Shown: piece after piece, positions 6,188-54,292 of the stretch
How the letters are laid out: each line of letters begins with the position of its first letter
How positions within the stretch are numbered: position 1 is the first letter of the stretch
Assembly: GCA_032718475.1 (NCBI GenBank)
Contig: JAUCBJ010006410.1
Span: 1 to 64,000, forward strand
DNA: 64,000 bases
Direction of reading: 5' to 3'
DNA from: Nemertoderma westbladi
Lineage: Eukaryota > Animalia > Xenacoelomorpha
Made by a program: the position numbers and the translations under genes
The notes under the pieces: model-generated
What the model saw: only the letters and a program-made list of their open reading frames with translations
Database searches by the model: none
What the model was told of the DNA's origin: nothing

Positions 6188-6272
6188 TGTAATATGAGTT
6201 TTATCTGACTAAAAAGAAGCTTACAAAATTGTGAACAGATACCGTAACAACAGTTTATGCCTACATATTACA
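6188..6272 (-). repeat. Probable 85-bp 3' LTR of the Gypsy element
   Basis: Bounded by the 9-bp inverted repeat TGTAATATG...CATATTACA and directly adjacent to the polypurine tract (6273-6287). The partner LTR was not found. Confidence 0.6.
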
Positions 6273-7916
6273 TTCCACCCCTCTCCACAAAAGTTCGCTT
6301 AAATCGATTCTAAAGACTCTTTAAGAATCTTTTAATTTAACTAAACCCATAATAGTTCGGAAATTTACGTTCTCTTGTGGATCGACGAAAATAATTACTT
6401 TTCAGTTTCTAACTCAGGTTGTTTCTCATAACTATCAAAAGTATCCCTTCTACTAGCCTCATCATCTCTATCAGCAACTTCATGAAGTTGGGCTGGTTGG
6501 GCCAGATCTCGCACAGATACAGTACTCTCCCTTCCGTTTGAGTACCTCACATGAGTATAAAAAGGATTAGCCACAATCAAGTCTCCTTCACCTACTTGCG
6601 GATCGTATTTGGTGTTGCGAACATGGCGTCGGATTAGAACAGGACCCGGAGATGACAACCAGGTAGGAATCGATCGACATGTGGATGACTTACTGGTGTA
6701 ATTAAAGAGAAGCTCATGGGGTGTACAGATCGTGGCAGTGCACAGAAGAGATCAGATAGAGTGAAGTGCATCAGGAAGGACAGACTCCCACTCACTTTCG
6801 TCGTGGGTTATATGGACACATACGGCTGGTAGCTATGTTATGAGAGTGTAAATAATTATTTAGCTCAGTAGAAATACCACATTGTGATATCACACGAATA
6901 TGGCAGATTTCGAACTTTCACAAAGTGGTAATAAAACCTAGCCATACAGGGGTGACAGAGGGAATGATGAAGGTTTGTTAGTGAAGTAGAATTTACTGAT
7001 GCACAATATAAACGTGAAACTCTATAAAAATTGTGAAAATCTATAGAAATTACAGATGCTCCTTCAATATCATGGTTAAGAGTACAGAAGGCAGTCTGTG
7101 CATCTGCCCAAAGTGGAAAAGATTTAGCTTGTATGAGAGGATTGATTTTATCTGAGAAATGTCAAACCCAGTTTGCATAAAAGGAGAATAAAGCAATCGA
7201 CCTCTTTAATTATTTATTGTTTGTAGGAAGGGGAATGTTTCGAAAAGGTTCCAACCTTCAGGATCAGGTTTAAGTGAACTATGAGAAACTTTGAACCCGA
7301 GCATAGATATTAAATTCTTGGAAAATATACACTTACTGAAATTGAAAGTAAGACTGTGTTTCCTGGCCGTTTCTAGAAACTTATTGAGATTGTCATCATG
7401 TTCTTGCTGTGTCATACCACAAATTGTAATATTGTCTAAGTAGACAAAGCAAGCATGGAGGTTGTTTTCTTTTATGAAGTTATCGATAATCTGTTGGAAT
7501 GCAGATACACCATTAGTTACCCATAAGGTATACATGTATACTGATACAGTGAACCATTTGCCTCGAATCTGGTGTAAAGTCTTTCTTCTTTAGGAATAGG
7601 AATTTGATGATATGTGCTTTTTAGGTTTAGGCCACCATAGAACTTGTACTTTGATACTTCATTGACTAGATTATCTATATGGGGAACCGGATAAGCATCA
7701 AGATGTGTATATTTGTTGATAGTTTGAGAGTAATCAACAATAAAGCGGACTCTATGATGATCCGTCATAGGAACAACATGAACTTGAGCTCGCCATATGA
7801 GATGGGTTCTATAACTTGATCCTTCAGAAGTTTGTCAATTTCCTTAGCAATATAATCCTTCTCTGAATGCCCAAATCGACGAGATTTGGTTGCTATGGGT
7901 ACACAGTTAGGTTGAA

Positions 7917-9012
7917 CTACTAGGATCGGCTCGGCATGCTGCATTGCAGCTGCATTTTTAAGAATGCTGTGCCGGCTTTTCGACAAATTTGCGCTGCCAC
8001 AACTCCCTATCACCCATGACATTTGCTAGATCATCCGCATCTTCATGGCCAGTGTCCTTTAAGATGCGTCTCCAGAAAGTCATGAGCTGTCCACCATTCT
8101 TATCCAATCCATGAGACTGCCAAAGCACAAGATTATGCACTGGCTGGTCCTCACGGCGAAAGCAATGTCCTGCAAAGCGGAGTCGACTTTGTTCAAATGT
8201 CAAGCTTGGGGGAACCAATGAGACACCTCTGATGTTATATAGTGTCTGGTTGGAGATACGTGCATTGTACTTGACACAATGAACCCGGCATAGGAGTACT
8301 GGAACTACTGCTGCTCTAAATAATCAGACCTTAAGTTTCCGATTAATTCTCTGTGACTTCCAAATCCTGGAAAGCCTATTCAAGGCTGCCCATGCCTTTC
8401 CATTACGTATTCGAAGGTCCTCACCTGACTTTCGGATCCATGATCCCAGGTAACAGAAGTCGTCCACATGTTCAAGCATACCATCCTTTGAGCTTATGCT
8501 CATCCAGTCAGAGACTTGCTGAGGACTTTCAAAGTTAACTGTCAAAATTTTGGTCTTTTTGGAGTAAAGACTAAGTCTAAGACCAACACTAGAAGCAGCC
8601 TGTTCTAATGAGCTGAGTCGTTGGGCTCCCTCTAGTGATTCTGAGAGTACTCCTAAGTCATCAGCAAAGTCTAGATCAGTTAGGTACTTGGCAGGATTTC
8701 CTGGACTTCTGGAGCCAGTAGGTGGTGTTACCATCACCCCATCATCACTATGATCATCTAAGGACATGCGTAGAACATAGTCAACCACAATTATGAACAA
8801 GAATGGCGCAAGTGTGTCTCCTTGGAGGACTCACCATAATACTTCAAATGGTTCTATGTCACCATCAACAGTAGACACAAATGTCGTTGAACCTGATCTG
8901 ATTGCTACAATAATTTCATCCGGAATCCCATATAATGAAAGCATGCTGAACATACGTGAGTGAGAGACTGAATCAAAGGCCTTGAAGAAGTCAACAAAGA
9001 TAACAGCCAGAT
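7917..9012 (-). mobile_element. RTE LINE copy 2 (5'-truncated, internally deleted) inserted in the Gypsy pol
   Basis: ORFs 8324..8800 and 7958..8218 are near-identical to copy 1; short (TAG)n tail at ~7917-7923. Confidence 0.9.
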
Positions 9013-9540
9013 AACGGCAGTCAGCTAATTTAACCTAGTTATAATATTGTCCATTTATCACTAACGTAGCTTCACAGAAACCATTTACTTTCTTGGTTTC
9101 AGAATGTTTCAAGTAGCCATGTTAATGTCAAAGTTTGCTTTCTTCACAGTAAGTTTACCCAAAATACTATGGTGTATAAAACTTTCAGAACTTCTGCTAT
9201 TGATCAATGCCTTGCATGGTTTCTTTTTGAGCATAACATCAACTAAACTTCCCGATAAGCAGGTTGGAGCACCGATAGTAGCTAGAGTAGCAAAAGCAGA
9301 GGCAGTAACAGCCTGATTCGTCTTACTTTGAGACTAACAAACCTTGGCGAAGTGACCATTCTTACCACAGTTAAGGCAGTCAGTATGTTTTGCTGGACAC
9401 GATTCATGTCCTCCGGGGTGCAGTTTACCACCACAGAAGTAACCTTTCTTTACTGTCACAGATGCTGATGTGTTTGGAGGATCGTTTCCTGAATCACCAC
9501 AATCTTTTCGATCCATGCTGGCCGAGCTGTAACTGCAAAA

Positions 9541-9765
9541 AAACTTAAGACTGCCGTTCAATATAAGTGGATTAGGTGGGAGTTAGAGTGTCAGGGTCTA
9601 GTGGCTGAGCTGGTTAGCGCTACTGATGAGGTCTGTTAGGCCGAAACGTACGTATAGCGCTGGCTCAACCCCCGGTGACACGCTTTCTCTTTTTTTCCAC
9701 TTATGAACAAAACCATTACCATTACATCATTAATTACAGTTGCAACAGCTCATCTCCAATTTATT
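9541..9765 (+). mobile_element. Hammerhead-bearing short element, family A
   Basis: Homologous to 3298-3592; abuts and truncates the Gypsy gag remnant. Confidence 0.6.
9616..9661 (+). ncRNA. Minimal type I hammerhead ribozyme (family A, second copy)
   Basis: AGCGCUA-CUGAUGA-GGUC(UGUUA)GGCC-GAAA-CGUACG-UA|UAGCGCU; predicted cleavage after A9654. Confidence 0.88.
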
Positions 9766-10271
9766 TAATATTATTGTAAACACCACCATGTCCGCAACCC
9801 TAACCGACATTTGTTAAGTTGATTTTAATCCTTTTCTGCAGTGACATTTCACGGCTAAAGTTTTAGCATGTAGGCCTTATAGGCCCTACTATGGTAACTT
9901 GCTTTCGTGGTGGCCGTTATGGGCTCCGTACTTCTAGGATATGTAAAAACTTGGAGCTCCCTCTGCCATTATCTGCACTCTGTTAACAATCCGATCTCCA
10001 ACGGGGCTGGAGTGATCAACAATAATATCCATAATAACAACTAATAATAACAAATAATCGACAATATCAACAATAATATGCAATAAAATAGATCATCTTC
10101 AGGCAGTCCCATGGTTCAATAAATGTGGACGCCAACCAATTACATATCATACTGTGTATATACGGTAGTTACGGAAGATGTCGCTAGGGATTCCTTTCCA
10201 ATTTTTAAATTTAAATACATTTTTTATTTAGAGAGTGAAAATTATTGGGAGTTAAAATACACAATAGTGCA

Positions 10272-11431
10272 TGTAAAAGCTTTTGCGGAATTAGCCGGTT
10301 ATTTTCCCCGTAAAGTGCTCTGTAGTTGTTTTAACAGGCATAAAAGGCCGTATCCTTACTGTACTGATGTTTTAGGGGACATAAAAAGCTATTTCTTCTG
10401 TATGTGTACTTTAGCGGACATAAATAGCAATTCTATGACGCAATGCGCTAGATCCTCTTGAAACAGTGTAGCTACCATGACGACGGCTAACAGCTGATGC
10501 TGTACACGTGGAGCTTTTCCTTTGTTCTCTGTTCCTTCTTTGTTCGGTCGACCAATCAGAGCGTTTTTTGACTCTGTGTTGGAGATTGTATACAGAAACT
10601 CGTGGAGTTGAGTCAGTATGTGTTTTATCCACTGCCTAGAACACCGGCTTTGGAACCTCCGTGTTTCAGACTTTAGCCCTACATTAGTAGGCTTAATTAT
10701 AGAACGTATATCTGTTATCATATCTCATATCAATCAAACATAACCATTCATACCTTAACCTTTGTACTGCTATTTACTTTCAGTTATTCATTATATATGT
10801 TGATGGAATATTATTATATTTGGAATACCGATAAATGATTACAAACCCTCGATCTTCTTGATATACCAAAGGTTAGAGAGACCGGTTACATATAACGATT
10901 GCGACTTACATTAAAGTGGTTTGAAGTGAATCTAATGCTATTTCATAGGCACTACATGTATTGTCTGTTGTTCTCTTTATATGTGACTAAAATTAGTGAA
11001 GGTCGGCAGATCAGTGTGCAGCATTGTGCAGTATTGTGTATGATTGTGACTGATAACAAAGCATCTCCCAAAGAATGCGCCATATACGTGAATCTATAGC
11101 CATCCCGTTGTGTCTAGTTTAAGTCATAACTCTGTTTACATATTTAGAGCGCCACGTCCTAAAGGAACTGTTAATATTTCCCGAAAGTGAATAATATTTG
11201 TCAGAGATTATATATTACGACCAGTCGAATAATACAGTAGGCCTACCCCGCAATACGGTTAGGCTTCCAAATCCAGTCTCCCGGGTATATCCAGCGGGTG
11301 AATGATCGCACATAGACTGGCTTCGGCTAATGTAGTGTATCAAATACTCGTCATAGGCTAAAGTCGATTTATTATCTAGAAGACATCCAAATTTGGCAGG
11401 TTAAACTGCTAAAGGTCTGAAAGCGCGAACA
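10272..11431 (+). repeat. 5' LTR
   Basis: TGTAAAAGC...GCGCGAACA; about 8 substitutions versus the 3' LTR by visual comparison. Confidence 0.95.
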
Positions 11432-11710
11432 ATAACAGATATTGCTTCTGTATTGCAGTAGGCAATAAAGCTGAAGTACCGGTTAACCGGTACCTAGTAG
11501 GCCTGAATACCTAACCACCCGGACCGGTACCTACAGCAGTACAGGTACAGTAGTATTATTCGATTGTGATATTATATACCGGTAGGCTGTTTAAGAGATT
11601 AGGGACTGTACACCCCTTGTTTCTTTTGGAGCTTACTTATTTCTGTCAGGTTTTATTTATTTGTAGGCCAATATTGAGCAGAAGGCGTGTAAGCCTGCTC
11701 CGATTGTACA

Positions 11711-12280
11711 GACAATTTGTAGGCTGGACTGTTGTCTGACTGTTGTTAAGTCTGAAGAGACTGTAGTGTGTGTAGAGCGTATGTCCGAAAAAGTACTAGT
11801 TAGGAAAGTAGGGGCTGCCAGTGCTGTGAGGTGAACCCCCTCGAAAGAATAAGTCGTACTACTCGGTTAGAATGCATACTAACTAACCATTTCGGAGTCT
11901 GCATATACTGTAGTGTATTTAGGCTTGATAGTAGTCTGCCAGCGTTTGGTCTGTACTTTGTTTGTGTAGTTTGTACGGGTAGCGTAATATTTCTTATTTA
12001 GATAATTTGTAGGCTGGATTTTGTCTGGCTGTTGTTAGGTCTGAAGAGATTTCGGTGTGTGTAGAGTGTATGTCCGATAAAGTGCCAGTTGGGAACGTAG
12101 GGGCTTCCAGAGCTGTGAGGTAAACCCCCTCGAAAGAATAAGTCGTACTACTGGATTAGAACGCATACTAACTAACCATTTCGGAGTCTGCATATACCGT
12201 AGTTTGTTTAGGCTTGATAGTAGTCTGTCAGTATTTGGTCTGCATTTTGTTTGAGTAGTCTGTACGCGTAGCGTAATATT
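11711..12280 (+). ncRNA. Tandem pair of ~285-nt units (period 290) in the LTR-element leader, each predicted to fold as a rod-like RNA
   Basis: Direct repeat 11711-11991 / 12001-12280; long G-U-rich stems with compensatory changes between the copies. Confidence 0.55.
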
Positions 12281-13227
12281 AATTATTCAGAGTTTATGCG
12301 ATTATTCGCAACATTCATATCCCCAAGTTTATTCCTACAGTAATTGTGCTTGTTATATATACCGTTATAGTTAAACTAACCCCGGTACTACATCAGGGCT
12401 GCTTGGCGTAGGTAAAGACTGGTGATTTTGTGCCCCGGTCACTCCAGCAGATACCATGGTTCTTTTAGCTGTTCAAGTATTTTTAACTACTGATTATTTG
12501 TTGTATAAGTACTTGTACCTAATTTAGGGTTTAGTGTACAGTGCTTTCCGAAGGTAATTAGTATGTAGGCAGTATATTTGTGTTGTAAAGTGGTTAATAG
12601 GCACGTTGGTTCTGGTAGACCGCGGTAATTAACTTCTAGGTAGGAACACTCCGTGATACATAACGTAGTACTTATAGCGATACGGCTATAAGTCGTCAGA
12701 CGGTGGTATTTTCCTATCTGGACAACGCAGTGTATTTACTACTACTTATTATTTTCAAATACCGTAGTACCCTGTTCGTTGTAATAACCAGATATTCTAA
12801 CCCTTTGTTAGGCTGGTTAGTAAACTTCTTGTAAAATTACCCTAAAAATTCGTACGTGTAATTTTTGTGTTTATTTAGAGATTGTAATCTCACCCCGAAT
12901 TGTACGTAATTTGTAGTATTAAGTAACTTAGGTAAATTAGAATTATTTGTTTTAGTGTCCCACAAGTAGCACTTCACTGAGAGCGCACAGCTTCTGTGTA
13001 GTGACTCCCCCAGAAATAATAACATTTATTTCAAATATTGACAAAACCCATTTTAACGGGTATATATATTATAAATCAACTCAAACGATTTATAAATAGT
13101 AGGCCTGCCATACAACAATTAGGTCTCAATATCAGTTGGACTACTGCTCAAATAACGGTAATAAAGTAAGTTAAAGTAACCAAGTAACCCCAAAAATTTC
13201 AGAAATTCAATTATTTAAAATAATTGA

Positions 13228-13480
13228 CATACCGGTATTCGCGATAGGCTTATTATATTTATTTCTATAAATTTAGGCTAAATTATATACCGGTATTCTG
13301 TGATTAATTCTAGTCTGCAATTATACTTATATATATATACTATAAGTGTAAGCTGTATACCGGTATTCACGATAGGCCTATTATATATTTATATATATTT
13401 GTGCTGAAATTACATACCGGTATTCTGTGACAAACCTAGTCTGTAATAATACTTATATATACTACAAGCACACCGGTATT
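13228..13480. repeat. Repeated (AT)ACCGGTATTC motif (5x) in a ~125-bp duplication upstream of the gag-like ORF
   Basis: Motif at ~13228, 13287, 13357, 13414, 13472. Confidence 0.6.
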
Positions 13481-13618
13481 CTAATATATTATATATATAT
13501 ATCAAGTTACATTTAGTGACGATATCGGTAATTAATTACTAGGCTATCAGTTGATACTGAATTACTAGATTTGCTTTAACTGTAACATAGCAGTAGACAT
13601 TCAACTGTGCAAACAAAC

Positions 13619-15772
13619 ATGTCTGACACAAAGCAAAACCTGTCAGACAGTCTCTTAGATACAACCATCTGTGACCCAGACAGGAGTGTGGAACATGTGA
13701 GACCGAAGTTCAACTCACCTCCTACTGTAAGAAAGATCATTCCCCCAGTAGTAATATCAGAACCTAGGCTGGTCCAACACCGTAGGTCTGTCATAGGCAC
13801 TAGAGCTCAGGTCAAGCGGGACCAAGAAGCAGCGGAACAGCAACCACCCGCGAGCCGAGAACTTATTTCTCAGCGGCCCGACAGCTCGAGTAGTGCGGAT
13901 ACTGTAGAGCTGACACCCGAGCACGGAGCAAAGATGACAGATGCGGTTTATTCGGATCCCCTTCTCATCCTTCCTGCAGCCGTACTCACTAGGTTATTGA
14001 TTGCGGTGGAGGAACACCAGATTGATTGGGCGAGAAGTAAGCGATCGACTAAGGATAGTTATGCGGGATACTCAAGGGAAGAACTGAAGTCTATTGTCGA
14101 GTCGCAATGGAACTTCCCCGGACCCGGACTCCCGTTTGATTTATCGGAAGCTGCCTGGGAAGACATACACAGGATGGGAGTAACCAAGGAAACCATCGAT
14201 CCAGCTGTGTGGAAGAGGTCCGCAGCCGGATACGTACAGGGATTCTTCAGCTCCATGGGGCGATTAGAAGAACAATTGTTTGGACAACCACAAGGACCTC
14301 AAGAGCAGGGAGATCTGCTTTATCAAGTTCGAGAAAGAATTCTAAGAATCAGACTAATCCTATCGGCCTTTGAGGAGGCTTCAAAAAGAAGACAAGACAC
14401 GTCGTTGCAAGTTGCCGTAAAGATTTGGTTACAGCGGGTGAGTCTCCAAGTTCAAAGAACTGCCCCTTGGAAATCTCAGTTATCTGAGCGCTCAACCCAT
14501 GAAGAATCCACAGACGCTACATTTTCCCAAGTGGAAAGTGAAGCGACGGTAGAGAAGCCGCATAAGAGGGATGCTATTGATATCTATCTGTCGGACTATC
14601 AACGTTTTGTAGGAAATGAAGAGTTGAGGAGAAGGTTAGATGGACTTAGCCCTAACAGTGAAGGAGCCAAGCTTGTGTTGGACGCAATCGATGTGGATAT
14701 GAGAGCTGCGAACCAAGCTGAATTTGATGAACGCCTCCGCATCACTAGAGTCCAAGAAGAACAAGTAAAGAAAAAACGTATAGAAGACAGAAAGATAGCA
14801 GCAGCGGCAGCAGCGGAGGCAGAAGCAGAAAGAAAAGCAGCAGCGGTAGTAGTAGAAGCAGAAAGAAAAGCGGCAGAAGTGGAAAGAAAAGCGGCAGAAG
14901 CAGAAAGAAAAGCAGCAGCGGCAGTAGTAGAAGCAGAAAGAAAAGCGGCAGAAGTGGAAAGAAAAGCGGCAGCGGCAGCAGTAGAAGGAGAAAGAAAAGC
15001 GGCAGCGGCAGCAGTAGAAGCAGAAAGAAAGCGAGCAGTGGCAGAAGCAGAACGAAGAGCAGCTGAAGAGACCACCCAACTGGAGTTGGAGGATATTCAG
15101 GAGAGTCGGGACTGCATAAATAAACAGTTAACAGCTAGTCAAATGCAGATGATGAGTCGATCTACTCCCAAGAGACAGGGTTTTACATCATCAGATGAGG
15201 GCGATACAACAGATCCTGAAGGCGGAGGAAATCGATCTCGTCTCAGCAGACGTCGAAGAATGTCCCAACGTCAGAAATTGCCGGATTTGCCCCCAACTGT
15301 TCGAAAACAACTAGCTAGCACAGACTTAGGTAGTACAGAACCCCTAGACCAAATTATTAAAATAGACAGACTCCCTACTATAGTAGATGAGCCTGAAATA
15401 ATTAGGCCTGTTCTCGAAGCCACCACTTTGGTGATAGAGACACCTGTACTCCCAAAACCTACCTCTAGATTCCCTTTGCATAGCACTAAGCTACCTGTGC
15501 CCAGCAGAACAGCCCAAGAGACAGTTCATGTCCTGGACTCCGAGCGAAATATTAATGATTTGTCGCCCGTTGTCCCTCGTCCGCCCGCTACAATGTTGGC
15601 GGCTCCCGCTTCGGCGGTCGAGTGGGTGGATGAGAGACGGCGGGGGATGGATCTCCTGCTCGGGCAGATGCAGGAGACTGTTAAGCAGTTCAAGGGCACA
15701 GTAAGGGAAAGTAGGTTAGAGTTGCAAGAAGTGCAGCAAAGTATCGCATTAGAACGCGATAAACTTACGTGA
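13619..15772 (+). CDS. Gag-region ORF of the BEL/Pao element (coiled coil, AAAAVEAERK repeats), truncated by an internal deletion
   Basis: Long ORF in the gag position (first ATG 13619), directly followed by an integrase fragment in another frame. No clear domain recognised. Confidence 0.55.
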   Translation: MSDTKQNLSDSLLDTTICDPDRSVEHVRPKFNSPPTVRKIIPPVVISEPRLVQHRRSVIGTRAQVKRDQEAAEQQPPASRELISQRPDSSSSADTVELTPEHGAKMTDAVYSDPLLILPAAVLTRLLIAVEEHQIDWARSKRSTKDSYAGYSREELKSIVESQWNFPGPGLPFDLSEAAWEDIHRMGVTKETIDPAVWKRSAAGYVQGFFSSMGRLEEQLFGQPQGPQEQGDLLYQVRERILRIRLILSAFEEASKRRQDTSLQVAVKIWLQRVSLQVQRTAPWKSQLSERSTHEESTDATFSQVESEATVEKPHKRDAIDIYLSDYQRFVGNEELRRRLDGLSPNSEGAKLVLDAIDVDMRAANQAEFDERLRITRVQEEQVKKKRIEDRKIAAAAAAEAEAERKAAAVVVEAERKAAEVERKAAEAERKAAAAVVEAERKAAEVERKAAAAAVEGERKAAAAAVEAERKRAVAEAERRAAEETTQLELEDIQESRDCINKQLTASQMQMMSRSTPKRQGFTSSDEGDTTDPEGGGNRSRLSRRRRMSQRQKLPDLPPTVRKQLASTDLGSTEPLDQIIKIDRLPTIVDEPEIIRPVLEATTLVIETPVLPKPTSRFPLHSTKLPVPSRTAQETVHVLDSERNINDLSPVVPRPPATMLAAPASAVEWVDERRRGMDLLLGQMQETVKQFKGTVRESRLELQEVQQSIALERDKLT

Positions 15773-16557
15773 ATACTTACGATAAAGCTTACGTCAAAGA
15801 TTGGAACCAAAGACAGGTGGACGATCAGCTACGAGTAACAGCGTCTAGCTGGACCTTCAACGCCGCCGACGCCCCTTGGTGGGGAGGAAGTTGGGAGAGA
15901 TTAATAAGAAGTGTGAAGACCGCATTTCACTTTATAGTGCCGTGCCGCGCGTATCTCACCGACGAACTTTTGCGGATGTTAATGGAGGAAATCGCCGCCT
16001 ATCTCAACGAGAGACCGCTTATGCCAATCTCATCGAGTCCCAATTCCCTGGAAGCGCTAACACCCGCGCACTTCCTACTGAAGAAACCTGTAGCCATGCT
16101 CCCACAATCGGAAATCACAGACGGAGACGAATACTGCCGGCAAACTTGGCAACTCATGCAATTGTTATCCCGTCGTTTCGCTGACCATTTCGAAAAACAC
16201 TATCTGCCCACGCTACAACTTCGAACGAAGTGGTTTGCGCAGCAAGAAAACGTCAGCGCTGGAGACATGGTCCTTATTGTGGATGCAGATCTTCCACGTA
16301 AGCGGTGGCAGACAGGTCGTATCATCGAGACTCACATCTCGGATGACGGTTTGGTGCGATCGGTAGAACTCGTCGTCATGCGACGTAACTTCAAGAAACC
16401 GGGAATTGTCTTCGAGACACAACAGCTCAATCGCCCAGTTGGTCGCTTATGTTTACTGGAAAGAGACAGAGAACTCTCCGGAAACTATGGAAGACAAGAT
16501 ACTCTTCCCACGACCACCTCCCTAATCCAACAAACATCTAGGGACTCCCCAGCTTAG
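15769..16557 (+). pseudogene. BEL/Pao integrase C-terminal part (end of catalytic core plus DUF5641-like domain)
   Basis: APWWGGSWERLIRSVK, LNERPL, ALTPAHFL, YLPTLQLRTKW, GDMVLI, W.TGRI, DGLVRSV, RPVGRLCLL are characteristic of Pao-family integrases. Confidence 0.92.
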
Positions 16558-17108
16558 TAGCGTATGGAGTGGGTGTGTGACCAGATTATTTTATATTCTT
16601 ATCATTTTATATTTATGTATATATTATTATGTAATTTTATTATAATCGTTTTCTTTAATTTTATTTAGCAGAATGTTATTTTAGCGATTATTTAGTAGAT
16701 TAGTGCAATATATATTCGCGTTCATTACTTAATTACTTATATATTATATATTTAGTGCGACGGCGAGAAATAATTCTTTTTCTCCTTCCTTACTGTCCGT
16801 ATTACATTACAAATACGTAACTACAGTAAGATGAAATATCCGTACTTATTAAAGTACAATAAAGCTCCTACTATATTCAAGTATTATTGGTAAGTAGAGT
16901 ATTAGGAATGCAAAATTCAGATCCTTGTGTCTCGGCTAAACCAAGCTCTGGGTAGACCTTGGAAACGACTTGCCTCTTCTCACTGACATTGCTTCGTGCG
17001 ATATTGCTCTCATACCGTATATTAAATAATACATATAGTAGCGTGATGTCCCTTTAACAGTAGCGTATAACGCAAAATAAATCTGTTAAACCCTTTGACC
17101 ATCTGCAA

Positions 17109-17380
17109 TTCTAGTCGATTAAGATATCGCGGCACCCACCGATATGCTTGAAAGACCAAATTCTAGAATCAGTGGTTAACGTCCCCAGACATGTTCTGGA
17201 ATAAACTGGTGCCCATCCTAAATATTAATTATTAATATTTACAAAATCTGTCGAATTTTAGATCCTTTAAAATTCTAGTCGATTAAGATATCGTAGCACT
17301 TACCGATACTCTTAAAAAGACAAAATTCCTAGAATCAAGGATCCCAGTCCCCAGACACGTTCTGGAATAAAATTGTGTCT
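17109..17380 (+). repeat. Imperfect duplication (period ~163 bp) with hairpin potential
   Basis: TTCTAGTCGATTAAGATATCG...CTAGAA...GTCCCCAGACA.GTTCTGGAATAAA at ~17109 and ~17273. Confidence 0.7.
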
Positions 17381-17690
17381 ATTTAACATTAAATAATAAA
17401 ATTTACGGGAATAAATTTAAATTCATATATTTCAATGAATTTAATAAATTGTCATTTTTATACAATTTATAACATTCCCAAAATTCCATTAATAAATAGA
17501 TCATGGGAGCGGAGATTCACTCTATTAAGCGTATTTGTGTGCGAGAATCTCCAATATATAGTCAATAGCCGATAAAATTCATAAAATCATGTATAGAGAG
17601 GATATTGACCATTAAAGAATTACTATTAAATAGCATCCCAGATCTGTATGCATGAGAATTACCCTAATTCTACCGCTAGCTTTCCATAAT

Positions 17691-17704
17691 GTCACCATGG
17701 CAAC
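17691..17704. promoter_or_regulatory. RFX X-box-like motif inside the LTR element
   Basis: GTCACCATGGCAAC fits GTHNYY-AT-RRNAAC; ~490 bp upstream of the cargo ATG. Confidence 0.3.
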
Positions 17705-18004
17705 AACCACGCTAGAATTAGAAGTGAGTTAAAAGAACAATAGAAAGCTTGCCCCATTGAAAAGCATAGGGAATAAATAGCGCACTGCTAGTATCCAAGG
17801 ATACATAATAAATAAAGTGATATTCTGGAAGGTACTGACTAACGGACAAATGGCCCGAATATGTACAGTTTGTGGCAGTTGTGTTGAATTTGTGCGTTCA
17901 TAGGTGAATGTTACTGCTAAAGTGTGTTTACAGTAGCTAGTCGCAATTGTGAAAGTAGCCCTAACTCTCCAGAAAGAACCTGAAGTACATCTAAGCCTTT
18001 GGGA

Positions 18005-18151
18005 CGGACAGTGGAGTGACTTGTGCCGGTTATCGTTGTCGTTGTGTAGCTACATCGTTGGCGAAAGCACAGCGACGATGGTACATCGGCGCTGAGGATC
18101 TTGCACTGTCCGGGGGCAAAAGAGGGGTAGGCAGCGACGCCCGCTAGCCTA
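18005..18151 (+). ncRNA. GC-rich structured RNA element immediately upstream of the cargo ORF
   Basis: Nested stems 18005-18013/18104-18112, 18023-18029/18086-18092 and 18031-18047/18067-18083 (17 bp, 5 G-U), plus hairpin 18128-18151. Confidence 0.55.
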
Positions 18152-18192
18152 ATATATAAACTCATTATAATATTGATAAACTCATAGCAGAT

Positions 18193-18729
18193 ATGACTGA
18201 GTTGATAGAAGATGATCTTGGTATCAGGGAGCGATATACTCTACCTTTACAAGCGTTTGTCGATAGCTTGATACGCGGCGATGCTGGCCCAACTACTACG
18301 GAGGATGATGGTCGTTATATCGAACCGCCAATGTCCCAGGAGCAACTTACGCGTGAATTGGACTATCGAAAGTTCACCGCTCGCTATACGCATCGTAATG
18401 GTACGTATATGGACTTCTTAACTACTGGCCATCCTATCGATTTACACTATACGGACGACGTAGACACCGAAAGGGAAATGGTTTTATTTAAATATCATAC
18501 CCAGCGGAGTCGGAACGATAAACCGAGAATAGAACACGAGAACTCTATTCGAAACAGACTCGAAAGGGAAGACGTTGAAGAGCCGGATAGACGCAGCGAC
18601 TTCAACAATTATCTGGAATTCCTGAGAGAGACATATCTCAATATTGCCAGCCAACAAAATCTCGAAACTCGATATCCTCAAGGTATACATCATGATCCTA
18701 TGATAGAACTCAAACGTTTTCACGTTTGA
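18193..18729 (+). CDS. Cargo ORF part 1, unknown function (probably the N-terminus of one long cargo protein)
   Basis: ATG-initiated 178-aa ORF overlapping the next ORF in the -1 frame (that frame is open from 18696). Confidence 0.55.
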   Translation: MTELIEDDLGIRERYTLPLQAFVDSLIRGDAGPTTTEDDGRYIEPPMSQEQLTRELDYRKFTARYTHRNGTYMDFLTTGHPIDLHYTDDVDTEREMVLFKYHTQRSRNDKPRIEHENSIRNRLEREDVEEPDRRSDFNNYLEFLRETYLNIASQQNLETRYPQGIHHDPMIELKRFHV

Positions 18730-21299
18730 ACTATTTCTATTTCACTATGATGTATCTTACCGCCGATCGACCACTACCTGTCGTCCCAGATAGCTTCGAA
18801 CAGATGGAGGAATATTGTAAAACTGGAGAACGATCATCCGCGTTTCCCCTGCAGGACGTGCGCCTTTGGTATTACTGCGACGAATGCCCTAGACCCAATC
18901 AGCAAACGGAAAGACATAAACATCCGCGGAGACGTTGCGCTAAACACAGTTTTACACGATATACTTATGGGAGTTTCGAGCGAAACCTATTCGACGTATC
19001 ACCTACGGTCGCTCAGCTCAAACAATCCTTGAATAAACCAATGATCAGAGTTCCGGAATACTCGGTCAGACCTCCTCATTCCTCAGTTAGACCTCAGACT
19101 CTTGATCCTAATAGTATCACGGATCCTCCCGAACTGTACTCACTGTTCAAAGATCTAGTGTTACCCGAACAGTTGATCGGTGGCACTCCGGTAGTAGGCT
19201 CACTAGATATTCGCCAACCCTACCTAGCTGGATTGGGACACGGTCATCTAATATCGCCGTTTAACCCATACAACCGTCCCGGCTTCACCTCGATCCAACC
19301 CATTACGGAAGTCGAAGAGAGCGTCGTACGAAACGCATTAGACGCTATTCGGCAGAAAATCGGAAAGGGAACTTACGATTGTTTGGAGAAACGTAAATTG
19401 CAGCAACAAGTCCAAGCGGTGAATGAATTAGCTTTACCCCAGTTCGATAGAGAAATACAAAATCTCGAGGAGGACATCGAACGTGGACGAACCTACTCTT
19501 TACAAGAGTTCCTAGATGAGCGTCTACAACAACAAGCGGAGGATAATCAGCTCGAGGAAAGACATATAGAACTAGATGAGAGAGAAGAAGCAGCTTTAGC
19601 CCAACCCGAAGCTCAAATCCTTATGACGGATCTCTACTCTAAAACCATCCTTCATCCCTCGATGGTTCCCCATTTCGGAGACAAACTCTTTGCGACGGTA
19701 CAACCCCAACCGGTTGATATCAACCTAAGATCTCGAGATCTTATCGCTGACGCTCCCATGTTGCAACGTCCGCCCATCGAAGCCGCTCGTGTCGATGGTA
19801 TACTCGTTGAACCTCCGGACAATAGAGCGGATCTTGTCCGTCGCATGGTACACGATGTAAACATACGCGCTAGACCTTTACCGGACTCGTTTTATGGGAT
19901 CAAAGATCACTCTTATTACGTCAATCTAACACAATATTACATGGTAAAACCAGAAGATCCTACACATAGTCTGAGGTTTCTACCACTCATAAATCCTCTC
20001 GATCTTGTCGAACTCGAACAACTGCTGAAACATCTGGATCAGTTAGTTAAAATAAACTCATTTCGAAAACCATATAATGTTTCCAGAATAGAGAAAGAAA
20101 CAATACCTCCGTATAATCTTGATGGATTCATCAAAACTCGATTAGTACACTGGAATCTTGACGTGTTATTCGAGGAGGAAAGAATACAACGATATGGAGA
20201 TGTGGAAACATATACCACACAATATTTAAAGTATAGAGATCTACCTAATGCAAGCGAATGCGCTACCTTGTGGCATCCAGTGGGAATGACCCTCGAAAAC
20301 GCCACTAAAGAGTGGAACGAAACTCTTAACGTTATCGAGATGTATGGATTTGTCACTTACGATAACGAAGGTAGCATTCCGGTTGGAGAACTGGGAACTA
20401 CGCGGATGATACACATACGAGGACTCGCTGGTTCTACCCACGTATTTACTCGAGCGTGTTCCGATGTGATTGATTATTCTTTTGAAACTCTTACTGAGAC
20501 ACAAAAGAAACTCCGACATGGACAATTCGAACTCGCGCAGCGTTACGTCACCGACACCGAGCGCAAACCGGCCATGGGTATCGATGGATCGATGTTACCC
20601 CAGCCCGTGCTCGAGATGTTGTTTAACGAAAGAATCCTTAAAATCGGCTCAGCTGTTTATGGAGACCTACAAAACGACTTTCGGAATATGGAGAACATTC
20701 CATACCCTTTCGTTGATACTCAGCTGATTGCTCCCTGGGCAGAAGGCCGAGGTTTCTTCCGCACTATGTATGCCAATACACCCAGCGGCATTACTAAAGT
20801 ACAACGAACCTCCATCGGACATCTTGCCTTTCAAGAATACGGATGGAATTTCAAGGTTGGAAATCCTATCAATTACCGACAAGTATATGGAGATCATTAT
20901 TCTCGTTTATACTTTGATGGACCATTGACCGCACCTGGCGCCGTGTATAGCTTTATGAGTGTTCCACTTCGTCCCTCCTTAGCTATATACACGATCTTTG
21001 AAAACGCAGCACTTGCCGGTTGGCTAGCCGATGTGTGCAGTCGTACCATACGCGCCCATCCCTTAATACTTGGAACCAAACTCGCCAAGTTAGATGAACA
21101 CAATAAATTCATCCGCTTCGAATGTTTCAGGCGCTTTCTGACTCCGTTCCGTAACGTTGATAGTCAGTTCAAAGACCGCGCTCTGACCAAACTCAGCCTA
21201 AGAGACTCAGCTGCGGAGAAGCTAAACAGCGCGGGATTTGCCCTCTTTCAGGACGTTTGTATACAGAACTTACATTCATCTGTTATACAAAGACCCTGA
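18726..21299 (+). CDS. Cargo ORF part 2: Cys/His motif, coiled coil and DEDDy (WRN/EXD/RNase D-like) 3'-5' exonuclease domain
   Basis: ExoI-like FVTYDNEG (D at 20361); LPQPVLEMLFNERILKIGSAVYGDL (cf. WRN [25 protein letters not shown]); FVDTQ; SIGHLA; ExoIII-like PL....IYTIFE. Confidence 0.75.
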   Translation: MNYFYFTMMYLTADRPLPVVPDSFEQMEEYCKTGERSSAFPLQDVRLWYYCDECPRPNQQTERHKHPRRRCAKHSFTRYTYGSFERNLFDVSPTVAQLKQSLNKPMIRVPEYSVRPPHSSVRPQTLDPNSITDPPELYSLFKDLVLPEQLIGGTPVVGSLDIRQPYLAGLGHGHLISPFNPYNRPGFTSIQPITEVEESVVRNALDAIRQKIGKGTYDCLEKRKLQQQVQAVNELALPQFDREIQNLEEDIERGRTYSLQEFLDERLQQQAEDNQLEERHIELDEREEAALAQPEAQILMTDLYSKTILHPSMVPHFGDKLFATVQPQPVDINLRSRDLIADAPMLQRPPIEAARVDGILVEPPDNRADLVRRMVHDVNIRARPLPDSFYGIKDHSYYVNLTQYYMVKPEDPTHSLRFLPLINPLDLVELEQLLKHLDQLVKINSFRKPYNVSRIEKETIPPYNLDGFIKTRLVHWNLDVLFEEERIQRYGDVETYTTQYLKYRDLPNASECATLWHPVGMTLENATKEWNETLNVIEMYGFVTYDNEGSIPVGELGTTRMIHIRGLAGSTHVFTRACSDVIDYSFETLTETQKKLRHGQFELAQRYVTDTERKPAMGIDGSMLPQPVLEMLFNERILKIGSAVYGDLQNDFRNMENIPYPFVDTQLIAPWAEGRGFFRTMYANTPSGITKVQRTSIGHLAFQEYGWNFKVGNPINYRQVYGDHYSRLYFDGPLTAPGAVYSFMSVPLRPSLAIYTIFENAALAGWLADVCSRTIRAHPLILGTKLAKLDEHNKFIRFECFRRFLTPFRNVDSQFKDRALTKLSLRDSAAEKLNSAGFALFQDVCIQNLHSSVIQRP

Positions 21300-21320
21300 A
21301 TACCCACAGGTTATTCTGTC

Positions 21321-22457
21321 GTGGAAGTTCAGACAGTGGGTCCGCTTGCGGAGACAGCCGCACCTACCTCAGCTATGCAATTGGAAGACGAACCAATATG
21401 CTTAGAATCTGAAGCGATCCAGCCTACAGCGCCCCGGAGCAGCGATATCGATTACGTCTTGGAGTGGTATCAAGGTCCACAATGTCTCACCGCATACGAT
21501 TATCGACACGCCAACTATGTTTCTCGAAAACGTTGTCGATTATGCGCATCGAGAGACCATTTCACCCCTATGGACTCCGACGTACCCTGCTCCTATTTCC
21601 ACGAACAACCGATGATGGAAATCTATTGTGCGTATTGCAGACTTAATAACTCGCACATTTTTGCAGTCTGCCCCCCATTTATGACTCAATGCCACCACTG
21701 TCAACTTAAAGGACATGCCAGTTATAATTGCCCCTTTAACCGCGATTTAGAAAGCGTAGATGAGATGATTACCCTGCGCTACATCCGAGCTTGGGAAGCG
21801 AACGCGGATTTACATTGTGAGTCCCGCCATCGCTACTACCCTGGACGCTCTTACGAGGGAGTTTACGCGTTCCATCCTTATTTATTCGCGTCTGTGGAAC
21901 AAAAAACACGCACACCGAGTTACGAACTAATGAAGCGTGTTGGTGAGTGTATTTCCACCAAATTTGTTCGAAAATATCTTAGGAACGTCAATCCTAACGA
22001 TATTACTTCATACCATTTGATCAATTTCATCCGTCAAGACCCTGAGTATGGCGATTTATTTATCAACTCGCACCCTGAGTTACCAGAAGTATCTCGACGG
22101 CCCTACGAATATCGAGCCCGAGAATGCGAGCTGGAAAGAACCATTAAACCGAGGAAGTTTCTCACCACTCACGGTCCGCCTACCGCCATTGTCCAGACGA
22201 CCCGTCAAGGACCCGTAGGAGCTGCTGTCCTAAGACGCGCCCTAAAGGCCGTTAGACCTCGCTCCACTGAAGTTGATATCGATCAACCAGGTACCTCGAC
22301 CGGCGGATACACCGATCGTAATCCTAAACCTTCTGATGCAATAGTATTGCACCCTTCACCCAGGAGTTACAGCCCTCCTAGTAAAGTGGCTCGCCCCAAA
22401 GAGAAAAGGACTCTTGCTAGCCTCAAAAAACTGCGTAAACGCCGTAAGAAAGACTAA
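21321..22457 (+). CDS. Cargo ORF part 3: CCHC zinc knuckles and basic NLS-like tail
   Basis: CRLCASRDH, CAYCRLNNSHIFAVC, CHHCQLKGHASYNC (CX2CX4HX4C); C-terminus LKKLRKRRKKD; in frame with part 2 across a single TGA. Confidence 0.7.
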   Translation: MEVQTVGPLAETAAPTSAMQLEDEPICLESEAIQPTAPRSSDIDYVLEWYQGPQCLTAYDYRHANYVSRKRCRLCASRDHFTPMDSDVPCSYFHEQPMMEIYCAYCRLNNSHIFAVCPPFMTQCHHCQLKGHASYNCPFNRDLESVDEMITLRYIRAWEANADLHCESRHRYYPGRSYEGVYAFHPYLFASVEQKTRTPSYELMKRVGECISTKFVRKYLRNVNPNDITSYHLINFIRQDPEYGDLFINSHPELPEVSRRPYEYRARECELERTIKPRKFLTTHGPPTAIVQTTRQGPVGAAVLRRALKAVRPRSTEVDIDQPGTSTGGYTDRNPKPSDAIVLHPSPRSYSPPSKVARPKEKRTLASLKKLRKRRKKD

Positions 22458-22534
22458 CTGTTTAGAGTATTTTTATATTTAGAAACTGTGATTTTTTATA
22501 TTTTATAGACTTAAATCCCATTTTCTGGGAGCGG

Positions 22535-23694
22535 TGTAAAAGCTTTTACGGAATTAGCCGGTTATTTTCCCCGTAAAGTGCTCTGTAGTTGTTTTAACAG
22601 GCATAAAAGGCCGTATCCTTACTGTACTGATGTTTTAGGGGACATAAAAAGCTATTTCTTCTGTATGTGTACTTTAGCGGACATAATTAGCAATTCTATG
22701 ACGCAATGCGCTAGATCCTCTTGAAACAGTGTAGCTACCATGACGACGGCTAACAGCTGATGCTGTACACGTGGAGCTTTTCCTTTGTTCTCTGTTCCTT
22801 CTTTGTTCGGTCGACCAATCAGAGCGTTTTTTGACTCTGTGTTGGAGATTGTATACAGAAACTCGTGGAGTTGAGTCAGTATGTGTTTTATCCACTGCCT
22901 AGAACACCGGCTTTGGAACCTCCGTGTTTCAGACTTTAGCCCTACATTAGTAGGCTTAATTATAGAACGTATATCTGTTATCATATCTCATATCAATCAA
23001 ACATAACCATTCATACCTCAACCTTTGTACTGCTATTTACTGTCAGTTATTCATTATATATGTTGATGGAATATTATTATATTTGGAATACCGATAAATG
23101 ATTACAAACCCTCGATCTTCTTGATATACCGAAGGTTAGAGAGACCGGTTACATATAACGATTGCGACTTACATTAAAGTGGTTTGAAGTGAATCTAATG
23201 CTATTTCATAGGCACTACATGTATTGTCTGTTGTTCTCTTTATATGTGACTAAAATTAGTGAAGGTCGGCAGATCAGTGTGCAGCATTGTGCAGTATTGT
23301 GTATGATTGTGACTGATAACAAAGCCTCTCCCAAAGAATGCGCCATATACGTGAATCTATAGCCATCCCGTTGTGTCTAGTTTAAGTCATAACTCTGTTT
23401 ACATATTTAGAGCGCCACGTCCTAAAGGAACTGTTAATATTTCCCGAAAGTGAATAATATTTGTCAGAGATTATATATTACGACCAGTCGAATAATACAG
23501 TAGGCCTACCCCGCAATACGGTTAGGCTTCCGAATCCAGTCTCCCGGGTATATCCAGCGGGTGAATGATCGCGCATAGACTGGCTTCGGCTAATGTAGTG
23601 TATCAAATACTCGTCATAGGCTAAAGTCGATTTATTATCTAGAAGACATCCAAATTTGGCAGGTTAAACTGCTAAAGGTCTGAAAGCGCGAACA
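22535..23694 (+). repeat. 3' LTR
   Basis: Near-identical to 10272-11431; followed by TSD GTGCA. Confidence 0.95.
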
Positions 23695-24533
23695 GTGCAA
23701 CATCAATTGGCTCTCTGCCATCCACAATAAAATAAGAAAAAATAAATAAAACCCAGTATAATTTTGGAACCTTAAACCGTCATTATTGTATACAGTGCAA
23801 TTATTAGAGTACGAACTGTAAATTAGGACGATGGATGTTGGACTGTAAAGACGATTTCTTCTTATTGTAGTAAAGTAGCTATCAGGTTCAGCTATCTCTC
23901 TTTATCAGGAAACACTTCAAAGCAAAGTTCTTTCGTAATTGCTAATTGCTCAGTATCCCATTTTATCAAGTTTACGGTATTTTTTGATAAATAGGTGATT
24001 GACTGATCTCATAAAAGGCCGGCACATTCTGCCGTTGCTACTGTACACTACATGCATGCTACGCTCTGTGTTCGTACATGTATAAGCGTGTGCTGACGTA
24101 CATTGCAATAGATAAGCATATACTCACTTCTGTATGCATAGTGGAGGCCTAATAAGGTAAAGAGCAAATATGCCGGGACACAAACCTTTTAATGTTTTAT
24201 TTAGCAAATTGTTCTAGAGACACTAAGAAATGTTACGACAAAAACACACCTTGAAAAATTGGCCCTTGGGAGATCTGTTAAATTGACGAAACTAACATTA
24301 GCAACAATAATTTTCCATAGCAACAAGTTAAACTACATATTTGTGGTAATTTCCACCGATGACAACTTGGCATTTCTACAGTAGTTATCTATGCCGTGCC
24401 GTGTTTTCCTGTTAGCGCCCCCATTCCTGTCCCCCCCCCCCCCCCCCGAATTTCCACTTACCCCCCGACCATTCCTGTTACCCCCCATATAATCCATATT
24501 TTGTATTTTCCATATTTCTCATTTCTCCATATA

Positions 24534-26437: not shown

Positions 26438-27099
26438 GATATATGAGATATTAATTTCAAGAAAAATTACGCGATTCTTAAATTTGTACACTACCCGGTT
26501 AAAAAGTACGCATGTGATGGGATTAGTCCTACAATTGCGCCAATAAAAGATAAGTTATTTTCGGTAAAAAAAACTTATCATTCGAGCACCTATAATAAAT
26601 GCATAATAAGAAGTTAACTGACAGTCAGATTTGTAACTTTGGTACATGAATTCGTACCTTGGACATTTTGATCTTCTTATGGGTGCTTGGCTTTGTTACT
26701 GGCGACTTAAATTGGTAATTGGGCAGGGGGACTTCAATTTGTAACCAGTAACTTCAAATCGTAACCAGGTTGCCAACAAATCGTAACCAGGTTGCCAACA
26801 AAGATACAGATGATTTACTAAAAAATTTCTAAATTGACCCCAACCCCCCGGAGGGACATCAGTTTGCTACCAGGTGGTCATATTTGTAACCAAGAAACAC
26901 ACATTGATTTGAAACCACTACCACAGATTCGTAAAAAGATTCGTATCACTAACCCGTGGCTGTGTCCTCTGTCAAACGAAAATTATAATGAAGATTTTGT
27001 GGCATTTGATTACAGATTAGGCCTAAATAACTGCAGAACTGTAACCCAGTACCGGTTGCGGGTAGGCCTAACTGCCTAAGTGAATAGCAGTGGATAGCA

Positions 27100-33132: not shown

Positions 33133-33362
33133 AAATGCCTGGCAAGTAATCAAACTGGGAGTGGGGATCGATATATAGCTCCAGTGTAACAAATTACAGA
33201 ATAATAGAAAGGGATCTGACAAATTATCCTTTCAAATACTTATTTCGACTCTATTTTACTCAAACATTTGATATATGTACTTTTTTACACTAAATTAAAT
33301 TTATTTTAGTATTATATCAATAAAAGCTACTAGGATATAATTTTATTAACGCATAAATAAGT

Positions 33363-54000: not shown

Positions 54001-54292
54001 ATTTAAAAAATCCCCCTTATTTAGGAACTAGTCGTATTTTTGATGCAATTTTAAAACGCTTGTAGAAAAAAAACCGGACGGTGAAATGTTTTCTGGTTTT
54101 TTGCTTTATGTTCAAGAAAGACCCAACTTTTACATTGTGAAATAAAATTATGCGGTATTTTTTCCTGAAACAAGTTATTGCATATTATATCGAAAAAATA
54201 TCCAAAAAAGGCCCAAAAACCCCTAAATAAGAGCCATTTTCCTTAAATAAGAACCCACTTTTGGAGCTTATTTAAGGGTATGTTCCCTACTG
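51001..54292. mobile_element. Long-TIR non-autonomous DNA transposon (inner), 5-bp TSD ATAGG
   Basis: CAGTAGGGAACATACCCTTAAATAAG...CTTATTTAAGGGTATGTTCCCTACTG; ~420-bp near-perfect arms; ATAGG at 50996-51000 and 54293-54297. Confidence 0.88.
51860..53015. repeat. AAC-rich degenerate ~10-bp repeat (AACGAGCAAC/AATGAGCAAC)
   Basis: Low-complexity array producing spurious L/V/C-rich minus-strand ORFs. Confidence 0.9.

Follow-up and report, generated by a model that had tools for sequence, protein, structure and literature searches.

In Nemertoderma westbladi, an LTR retrotransposon family of many copies carries in the env position a third gene, here called the cargo, which is a family gene under strong purifying selection and not captured junk. 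On sequence comparison, its product very probably contains a domain of the DEDDy 3'-5' exonuclease fold (WRN/EXD2/RNase D-like), and zinc knuckles follow behind it. The window analysed here comprises positions 1-64,000 of the forward strand of contig JAUCBJ010006410.1 (GCA_032718475.1), 64,000 nucleotides in all. Its copy is a recent insertion, which has lost most of pol and is slightly decayed (Table 1).

Direct terminal repeats with TG...CA ends, a target duplication and a polypurine tract identify the element as an LTR retrotransposon. The two LTRs differ at exactly 8 of 1160 bases and are flanked by the 5-base duplication GTGCA, in agreement with an earlier note on this DNA, which had counted about 8 differences by eye. 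Protease, RT and RNase H are absent between the LTRs, as that note had also stated. The gag-like frame has neither a Pfam match nor a CCHC, so that the triple Cys-His box of BEL/Pao is not seen in a frame whose end is deleted here. DUF5641 and the PWWGGSWERL motif, which we take to be markers of BEL/Pao integrases, are both present, and the family is likely BEL/Pao. Hallmarks of this class are a YVDD RT, the order PR-RT-RH-IN and long D-E spacing in integrase, according to PMC554778. Sinbad, Tas and Cer7, all BEL/Pao, are described there with the same integrase tail type, TG...CA ends and 5-base duplication. The third gene of Tas and Cer7 is an envelope gene, whereas here it encodes a soluble nuclease-knuckle protein: no membrane-spanning stretch was found in the cargo (top 19-residue hydropathy 1.19), which does not fit an envelope gene.

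Table 1. Features of the window copy and its flanks.
Feature	Position	Strand	Remarks
Target-site duplication, left copy	10267..10271	+	GTGCA, 5 bases
5' LTR	10272..11431	+	1160 bases, TG...CA ends
Candidate self-primer in LTR	10708..10718 (also 22971-22981)	+	putative function; 10698-10704 could give 7 further pairs
Primer-site position	11432..11442	+	lacks TGG; abuts the LTR end and is the exact reverse complement of 10708-10718
Long non-coding leader	11443..13618	+	tandem duplication inside (11732-12291)
Gag-position frame, 717 aa	13619..15772	+	Ala/Glu-rich repeat; stops at deletion point ahead of any knuckle; presumed gag from its position
Deletion junction	15760..15775	+	gag end, protease, RT, RNase H plus integrase front gone; most other copies diverge here
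Integrase C-terminal part	15763..16557	+	PWWGGSWERL motif; DUF5641 E 3.8e-21
AT-rich non-coding spacer	16558..18192	+	TATA-like word at 18153, 40 bases upstream of cargo ATG; putative promoter
Cargo piece 1, 178 aa	18193..18729	+	frame break near 18720, peculiar to window copy; 8/10 shared differences silent
Cargo piece 2, 849 aa	18750..21299	+	frame open from 18696; closes at window-copy-specific stop, 21297-21299
Cys/His motif	18876..18947	+	possible zinc site
DEDDy-like 3'-5' exonuclease domain	20310..21060	+	ExoI D 20361, E 20367; ExoII D 20664; ExoIII variant Y 20988, E 21000
Cargo piece 3, 385 aa	21300..22457	+	same frame as piece 2
Three zinc knuckles	21534..21731	+	21534-21590 (atypical), 21627-21671, 21690-21731
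Basic tail	22365..22454	+	possible nuclear localisation signal
Polypurine tract, short	22527..22534	+	
3' LTR	22535..23694	+	1160 bases, TG...CA ends
Target-site duplication, right copy	23695..23699	+	GTGCA

The cargo (18193-22457) runs over some 1,420 codons, split into three pieces, and its size of about 4.3 kb and its env position are as the earlier note described. The Cys/His motif, the three acidic motifs, the knuckles and the basic tail were found where that note placed them. Its three CCHC-type knuckles are all present, the first being atypical, and its coiled coil was not confirmed, as the Q/E-rich stretch near 19520 does not exceed another one, near 19820, in a crude heptad score. The Cys/His motif has no family match, and K or R occupies 13 of the final 30 residues. 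The frameshift near 18720 and the stop belong to the window copy alone. An intron was considered for the frame change and dropped, because the one GT...AG pair checked by eye would not keep the phase and the length at this place is different in other copies.

Comparison among copies revealed how the cargo is maintained. All 30 of 30 cargo bins are covered in each of four sequencing runs. For the selection test, 39 of 1,142 listed differences were used, picked by support; among the best-supported shared ones, 26 of 29 are silent where 29% would be expected (p about 1e-11, crude pN/pS 0.05). This holds for the nuclease (8/8) and for the knuckle part (5/6), and silent changes are seen at the codons of the ExoII Asp, one knuckle Cys and one knuckle His. 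Differences private to the window copy, in contrast, change the residue in 8 of 10 cases. Cargo pieces among the listed contigs are mostly gap-free (27/32, 7-19% diverged), compared with none of the four non-coding pieces. At 15763, 57, 21 and 5 contigs leave the window sequence in three runs, numbers close to the coverage of neighbouring positions. Since most contigs depart at this point, the loss of pol looks rare or private, and the trans-mobilised derivative proposed earlier is not established. The common derivatives seen among contigs have the nuclease deleted, not pol.

The nuclease has no sequence match in Pfam or PDB, and its half of the cargo matched a single entry, P0001, among 1.84 billion protein representatives. 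P0001, from a contig of 9.4 kb, is a distant protein (29% identity) which shares with the cargo the nuclease, its Y-x3-E variant and three knuckles, and in each of the two proteins the five residues proposed as catalytic are acidic or Tyr. Used as a query, it retrieves only itself. Searches of the nuclease half against 4586 and 3466 candidate proteins gave no match, contig scans of viral, metagenome and prokaryote genomes found no relative, phage and plasmid scans matched only at E above 1, PHROGs gave no match, and a two-row profile matched 0 of 5 genomes. No rotifer ORF3 sequence came up in the protein searches. The sole match among 201 genomes is an exonuclease of WRN-like type.

Profile comparison points to the DEDDy fold. 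Against a profile of 35 bacterial WRN-like exonucleases, the pairwise E was 7e-5 for the window, 1e-4 for P0001 and 3.5e-8 for both together, while the best of 21 control pieces reached 0.1. The cargo and P0001 ranked first and second among 603 targets. An RNase D model matched the cargo nuclease at E 0.0037, and Atlas leads toward a DEDDy-type fold stood at 0.89 and 0.86. The core around ExoII is homologous to DEDDy nucleases with the controls included; the ExoI piece alone and the ExoIII piece alone were not significant in the profile comparison. The ExoII D is supported by the profile, and the ExoI and ExoIII registers were aligned by eye. The D-V-E of P0001 aligns to the ExoI of the family and the D-N-E of the window to that of P0001; a different register was preferred by MAFFT and by the guided model. 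ExoIII reads Y-x3-E in the window and P0001, on a predicted helix, where the canonical motif is Y-x3-D, and the fourth acidic residue of the window nuclease is E instead of D. No HRDC domain matched behind the nuclease at E 1, and the single-sequence model is unreliable over 21060-21300. Folding from the single sequence, unguided, gave no usable model (pLDDT 30). A guided model (pLDDT 51), which left the proposed ExoI residues unplaced, resembled RNase D, WRN and EXD2 (Foldseek E 6e-5 to 8e-4; Z 9.6, rmsd 4.8, 173 aligned), matches that are circular because the model was made from DEDDy rows. By profile (bacterial WRN-like rows) and guided model, the cargo nuclease would belong to the same DnaQ branch as WRN, EXD2, Nibbler/Mut-7, EXD1 and Egalitarian; no one-to-one orthology is claimed. 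Weak but agreeing sequence evidence supports the retroelement-borne DEDDy-like exonuclease with knuckles of the earlier note, and the nuclease is probably an active enzyme. Of the three refuting conditions which that note had set for its reading, two were checked, and neither refuted it.

The start of reverse transcription also appears unusual. Two features are new here: a tRNA-type primer site is absent (no TGG within 40 bases after the 5' LTR), and the 11 bases that follow the LTR are exactly complementary to a stretch inside it, an arrangement like that of Tf1 self-priming. Both had been missed in the first reading of this DNA. A complement flush with the LTR end arose in 28 of 20000 shuffles (85 of 20000 with offsets 0-5), and 2 of 11092 internal positions have an exact complement of this kind. 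Seven extra pairs lie past a 3x3 loop from the 11-base helix. Of 1000 shuffles, 28 reached the energy of the 22-base duplex, and 3 of 6 predicted folds of longer leaders lacked the helix. In Tf1-type elements the primer is the 5' end of the transcript and is freed by RNase H; here no canonical TATA box was found 30 bases upstream of the candidate primer. A primer formed at a splice junction is unneeded because the complement is contiguous, and no donor word is present in the LTR; one formed at a poly(A) site was rejected likewise, there being no poly(A) signal just upstream of 10718. In Tf1/Tf2, Tj1, Tf1/sushi and Tcn1, an 11-base primer site by the LTR pairs with the element's own LTR, as here (PMC7175516, PMC4600332, PMC6317226). 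The self-primed systems in these reports are Ty3/gypsy (or plant copia), and the loop in the window element is about 710 bases. These features suggest, with fair likelihood, that the element's own RNA serves as the primer for reverse transcription.

What the enzyme does is less certain. The best explanation, which we propose tentatively, is that the third gene encodes an RNA-binding 3'-5' exonuclease of 1,420 residues that acts in trans against host small-RNA silencing; self-priming would then be a separate feature. The knuckles would hold single-stranded RNA and guide it, 3' end first, into the active site, a mechanism that is reasonably likely by analogy with the RNase D of Trypanosoma brucei (TbRND, PDB 7C42). 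In TbRND, the exonuclease domain is followed by tandem CCHC fingers, as in the cargo; the fingers increase RNA binding and cleavage, and overexpression reduces guide RNAs (PMC7797062). That report describes a cellular, mitochondrial protein of <400 residues with four fingers near the domain, trimming the U-tails of guide RNAs, whereas the cargo is mobile, has three knuckles about 150 residues off and matches TbRND at E 2.9 in the knuckles only. The target would be guide RNAs of the host (piRNA/siRNA) or their precursors, cut back until they can no longer direct silencing; this choice of target is a shade more tentative still. The basic tail and the 700 further selected residues would suit a regulator in contact with host factors more than an enzyme of the virion.

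The closest known arrangement is found in rotifers. Juno and Vesta (LTR elements of bdelloid rotifers) and Athena/Terminon carry, in the env position downstream of pol, a DEDDy/RNase D-like exonuclease gene (PMC5408684, PMC6431247, PMC5718144). As these sources present it, rotifer ORF3 resembles the cargo in having no membrane segment and one altered acidic residue, its motif being given as DEED, with E at the fourth position of the cargo. Its hosts are rotifer-specific LTR lineages of low copy, whereas the present family is likely BEL/Pao, with hundreds of copies and clear purifying selection. The cargo exceeds ORF3 by about 700 N-terminal residues and has three knuckles, whereas the main text of PMC5408684 uses neither 'CCHC' nor 'zinc knuckle' (its supplement may differ). 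The earlier note did not recognise the architecture; rotifer DEDDy third genes (PMC5408684) and the exonuclease-CCHC combination of TbRND (PMC7797062) are on record, and a literature search found neither a DEDDy third gene nor exonuclease plus knuckles in BEL/Pao. Rotifer elements with DEDDy genes show, as reported in PMC5408684, no clear tie to copy number and still draw small RNAs, which we count against the counter-silencing reading.

A weak or dead nuclease fold might instead serve RNA binding, as an adaptor carrying, packaging or shielding the element RNA, comparable to Egalitarian, EXD1 or Maelstrom. Consistent with this are the variant fourth acidic residue, the long insertions in the domain, the three knuckles and the long N-terminal part; Egalitarian ties with WRN and EXD2 atop the fold list of the circular model (Z 9.6, 9.5, 9.2), and inactive DEDD derivatives exist in the piRNA pathway, according to PMC5408684. 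We nevertheless regard it as unlikely, though worth keeping in mind, as the five proposed catalytic positions remain acidic or Tyr in the window and P0001 despite 29% identity, and the ExoII Asp carries a silent change.

It is more doubtful that the element uses the exonuclease to finish its own primer: unpaired RNA would be trimmed to the edge of the duplex of 10708-10718 with the primer site, and the resulting 3' end, level with the end of the LTR, would start reverse transcription. The lack of a tRNA-type site, the flush complement and the seven pairs past the loop agree with this, the length and geometry equal those of Tf1 (PMC7175516), and RNase D-type enzymes trim ends of structured RNA, as PMC5408684 notes. 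But the Tf1 primer is made by RNase H with no extra gene required (PMC7175516), DEDDy genes are found as well in Penelope-like elements and in Dada DNA transposons, whose chemistry is different (PMC5408684, PMC3706591), and the shuffled duplexes and longer-leader folds above weaken the helix. A BEL/Pao family without tRNA priming, whose own exonuclease-knuckle enzyme trims a self-primer, would be a third route to start reverse transcription, and it is equally doubtful.

Action on DNA, by trimming cDNA ends or failed integration intermediates, is improbable. LTR ends are already processed by integrase, most LTR elements manage without a gene of this kind, and tandem knuckles suit single-stranded RNA better. 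On the other side, the closest profile is of the WRN/EXD2 type, which includes DNA exonucleases, the tail is basic, and Dada transposases have a DEDDy domain for which the same role was suggested (PMC3706591). Captured host DNA in neutral decay within one copy, which the earlier note had held against its own reading, can be practically discounted and is refuted for the family: the frameshift, stop and mostly residue-changing private differences of the window copy would suit it, but the cargo is multi-copy, with silent shared differences, full coverage in four runs and gap-free diverged copies.

The rotifer report found no clear benefit of DEDDy genes to the elements that carry them (PMC5408684). 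Here the gene is large, present in many copies and under strong purifying selection, and therefore clearly serves the element. The nuclease domain is uninterrupted in the window copy and can be assayed directly. If the enzyme does trim a self-primer, this would be a new priming route and the first concrete job for DEDDy genes captured by retroelements. If, as in the preferred reading, it shortens the guide RNA of the host, this would be a case of an element in an animal countering piRNA silencing with an enzyme.

The element at 10272-23694 keeps the outline that an earlier note on this DNA had drawn. Its two LTRs have 8 mismatches over 1160 bases, GTGCA stands on either side, and no protease, reverse transcriptase (RT) or RNase H was found in this copy. 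The gag-position frame has no knuckle and no Pfam family match. The sequence suggests that the family is likely BEL/Pao, and we take the integrase tail of this copy as the mark of that class. The RT-based features of the class described in PMC554778 belong to the part of pol that this copy has lost. The short frame just left of the insertion matches nothing in Pfam and may be left over from a different retroelement. In this stretch the host, an animal, has genes with few introns.

Features of the element and of the surrounding window
Feature	Position	Description
LINE-type reverse transcriptase element, three copies	298-1436, 7928-9012, 29955-31273	RVT_1 + DUF6451; 92-98% alike
Short frame, minus strand	9334-9582	ends in zinc-knuckle-like stretch
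5' LTR	10272-11431	1160 bases, TG...CA ends
Leader		2.2 kb, inside element
gag-position frame		717 residues
Integrase tail		DUF5641, E 3.8e-21; starts at end of gag-position frame
Spacer		1.6 kb, between integrase tail and cargo
Cargo gene	18193-22457	three pieces
3' LTR	22535-23694	1160 bases, TG...CA ends
Gpi1/PIGQ	27088-28155	long single frame
Lebercilin-like gene	33357-35165	long single frame
FANCI	38067-42161	complete, one unbroken frame, 1,348 residues, six FANCI Pfam domains
Tandem array	43460-44146	33-base units; open frames on both strands
Tandem array	48200-49900	21-base units
Nested long inverted repeats	50735-57386	flank 10-base and AT-rich tandem arrays; foldback- or MITE-like

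The large gene claimed for the env position (the cargo) was recovered with about 1,420 codons, but two breaks interrupt it in the window copy: the frame changes near 18720, and a stop occupies 21297-21299. An envelope gene is ruled out, because no membrane-spanning stretch was found in the cargo. Contigs from four of nine listed public sequencing runs (X1, X3, X4 and X5) were aligned to the element. In each of the four runs, almost all of the depth over the stop has other sequence; at the frame change, depth is at most 48 in X1 and 45 in X3, versus tens of thousands on both sides, and X4 and X5 contigs span the site with gaps. Both interruptions are peculiar to the window copy, and the family-level cargo is most likely a single continuous frame. 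Single cargo contigs in X3 have depths of 5,700 to 14,000 against 26 to 52 in the flanks (about 110 to 540 fold, an order of magnitude only, as depth is not copy number by the tool's own caveat), which puts the element at roughly hundreds of copies. Run X5 carries the label of a second organism; it gave diverged, low-depth pieces of the whole element including the cargo (10100-23900), which come either from a related species or from mixed material.

The cargo is a family gene under selection, present in many copies. We scored 39 differences, the best-supported 40 of 1,142 listed minus the row at the stop; this sample represents the best-supported rows, not the whole variation. Among differences shared between copies, 26 of 29 are silent, versus 29% expected (p ~1e-11; crude pN/pS 0.05), distributed as 8/10 in the first piece, 5/5 in the N-terminal half, 8/8 in the nuclease and 5/6 in the knuckle part. 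This, together with coverage of 30/30 bins in all four runs, excludes captured DNA decaying neutrally in a lone copy. Private differences of the window copy are mostly residue-changing (8/10; Fisher p 1e-4 versus shared). Their density including the stop, 0.29%, is close to half of the LTR divergence, 0.34%, as it should be if the copy has decayed from the time it inserted. Of the listed cargo pieces (9,850 bases, 15% diverged), 27/32 are gap-free, versus 0/4 listed non-coding pieces.

At 15763, contigs depart from the window sequence (57 in X1, 21 in X3 and 5 in X5), about as many as cover nearby positions. Since most contigs depart there, the pol deletion looks rare or private, and the proposed trans-mobilised derivative gains no support from these contigs; pol of the parent was not seen. 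Many-copy derivatives without the nuclease are present: in other copies, joints 18560-21383, the deepest form in X4, and 19571-22301 take out most of the cargo, nuclease included, and joint 18220-18430 deletes part of the cargo front. Frequent nuclease-deleted derivatives are expected if the cargo protein acts in trans.

The window nuclease has no match in Pfam or PDB sequence searches, and the first 700 cargo residues have none in Pfam, NCBIfam or PHROGs; NCBIfam RNase D reached E 0.0037 against the cargo, far under the model's cut-off. Among 1.84 billion representatives, the nuclease has a single match (E 5.7e-4, 29%), P0001, a 648-residue protein with nuclease then knuckles from a 9.4-kb contig, singleton in its collection. 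P0001 was found via the nuclease region, and its three knuckles also match those of the window (pairwise E 7e-5); therefore the domain order appears old and not confined to the window family. By eye, there is extra likeness directly behind the knuckles. Atlas leads stayed below the 0.9 mark: DNA_pol_A_exo1 clusters for the window (0.89) and, for P0001, a Euglenozoa exonuclease-CCHC cluster (0.86). Over 603 targets, the best match to a 38-row profile of bacterial stand-alone WRN-like exonucleases was the cargo (E 0.001) and the next best P0001 (E 0.017). Against a 35-row alignment of the same set, hhalign gave E 7e-5 (probability 63) for the window, 1e-4 (57) for P0001 and 3.5e-8 (95) for both, versus 0.24 for the N-terminal part of the cargo and 0.1 for the best of 21 control pieces. 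A two-row profile had matches in 0/5 genomes; over 201 genomes it had one, a WRN-like exonuclease (E 0.017 per genome), a number not above chance. Putative ExoI (D 20361, E 20367) and ExoIII (Y 20988, E 21000) were placed by eye and by alignment to P0001; MAFFT put ExoI in a different register. The unguided nuclease model had pLDDT 30 and no usable fold. A model guided by 17 rows, of which 16 were exonucleases of known type, came to pLDDT 51; its matches to RNase D, WRN, EXD2 and Egalitarian are circular, and the proposed ExoI residues remained unplaced in it. Of the DEDDy exonuclease with three knuckles first described, the knuckles and the core around ExoII, the supported part of the predicted homology, hold; the ExoI and ExoIII pieces by themselves gave no significant profile match.

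No TGG lies within 40 bases after the 5' LTR, and the reverse complement of the first 11 bases there is identical to LTR 10708-10718; the 3' end of the candidate primer is flush with the LTR end. The earlier note had missed this feature. A flush 11-base complement arose in 28/20,000 shuffles (85/20,000 with offsets 0-5), and 11-base complements to the LTR exist at only 2/11,092 internal positions. Seven additional pairs lie beyond a 3x3 loop next to the helix. Three results speak against self-priming: the energy of the 22-base duplex was equalled by 28/1000 shuffles, the helix is well populated in three folds but absent in three with other ends, and no canonical TATA box was found 30 bases upstream. 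In Tf1, too, 11 LTR-paired bases prime, the primer being freed by RNase H (PMC7175516, in part; further precedent in the available parts of PMC4600332 and PMC6317226). The element probably self-primes reverse transcription. Self-priming in BEL/Pao was not found in the searchable, mostly non-subscription literature, including the accessible text of PMC3601003.

In the soluble protein that the cargo would give, the knuckles would bind single-stranded RNA and the DEDDy domain would trim RNA 3' ends, by analogy with Trypanosoma brucei RNase D (TbRND), where fingers increase RNA binding and cleavage (PMC7797062, in part). As the target we tentatively favour host silencing RNAs. DEDDy genes are carried by elements whose chemistry differs widely, and this speaks for a common enemy more than for a common step; a regulator would fit the basic tail and the long N-terminal part under selection; and priming in Tf1 takes no extra gene. 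It is rather unlikely that the nuclease is dead and the protein an RNA adaptor. Trimming of the self-primer is doubtful, given Tf1 and the varied chemistry of the carriers, and trimming of DNA ends is improbable.

The earlier note did not recognise the architecture. No report of a DEDDy gene in BEL/Pao was found in mostly non-subscription literature without Repbase (including part of PMC8220671), but the exonuclease with CCHC fingers is already known from TbRND, and rotifer Juno and Vesta LTR elements and Athena/Terminons carry DEDDy third genes with a DEED variant (accessible parts of PMC5408684, PMC6431247 and PMC5718144). For these, PMC5408684, as far as available, gives no clear copy-number link and describes activity as undemonstrated. 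Dada DNA transposons likewise carry a DEDDy gene (PMC3706591, in part). In summary, there is good support for a family that is likely BEL/Pao, probably primes itself and carries a large exonuclease-knuckle gene under strong selection; this selection, the copy number and the unbroken nuclease domain make the role of retroelement DEDDy genes testable.
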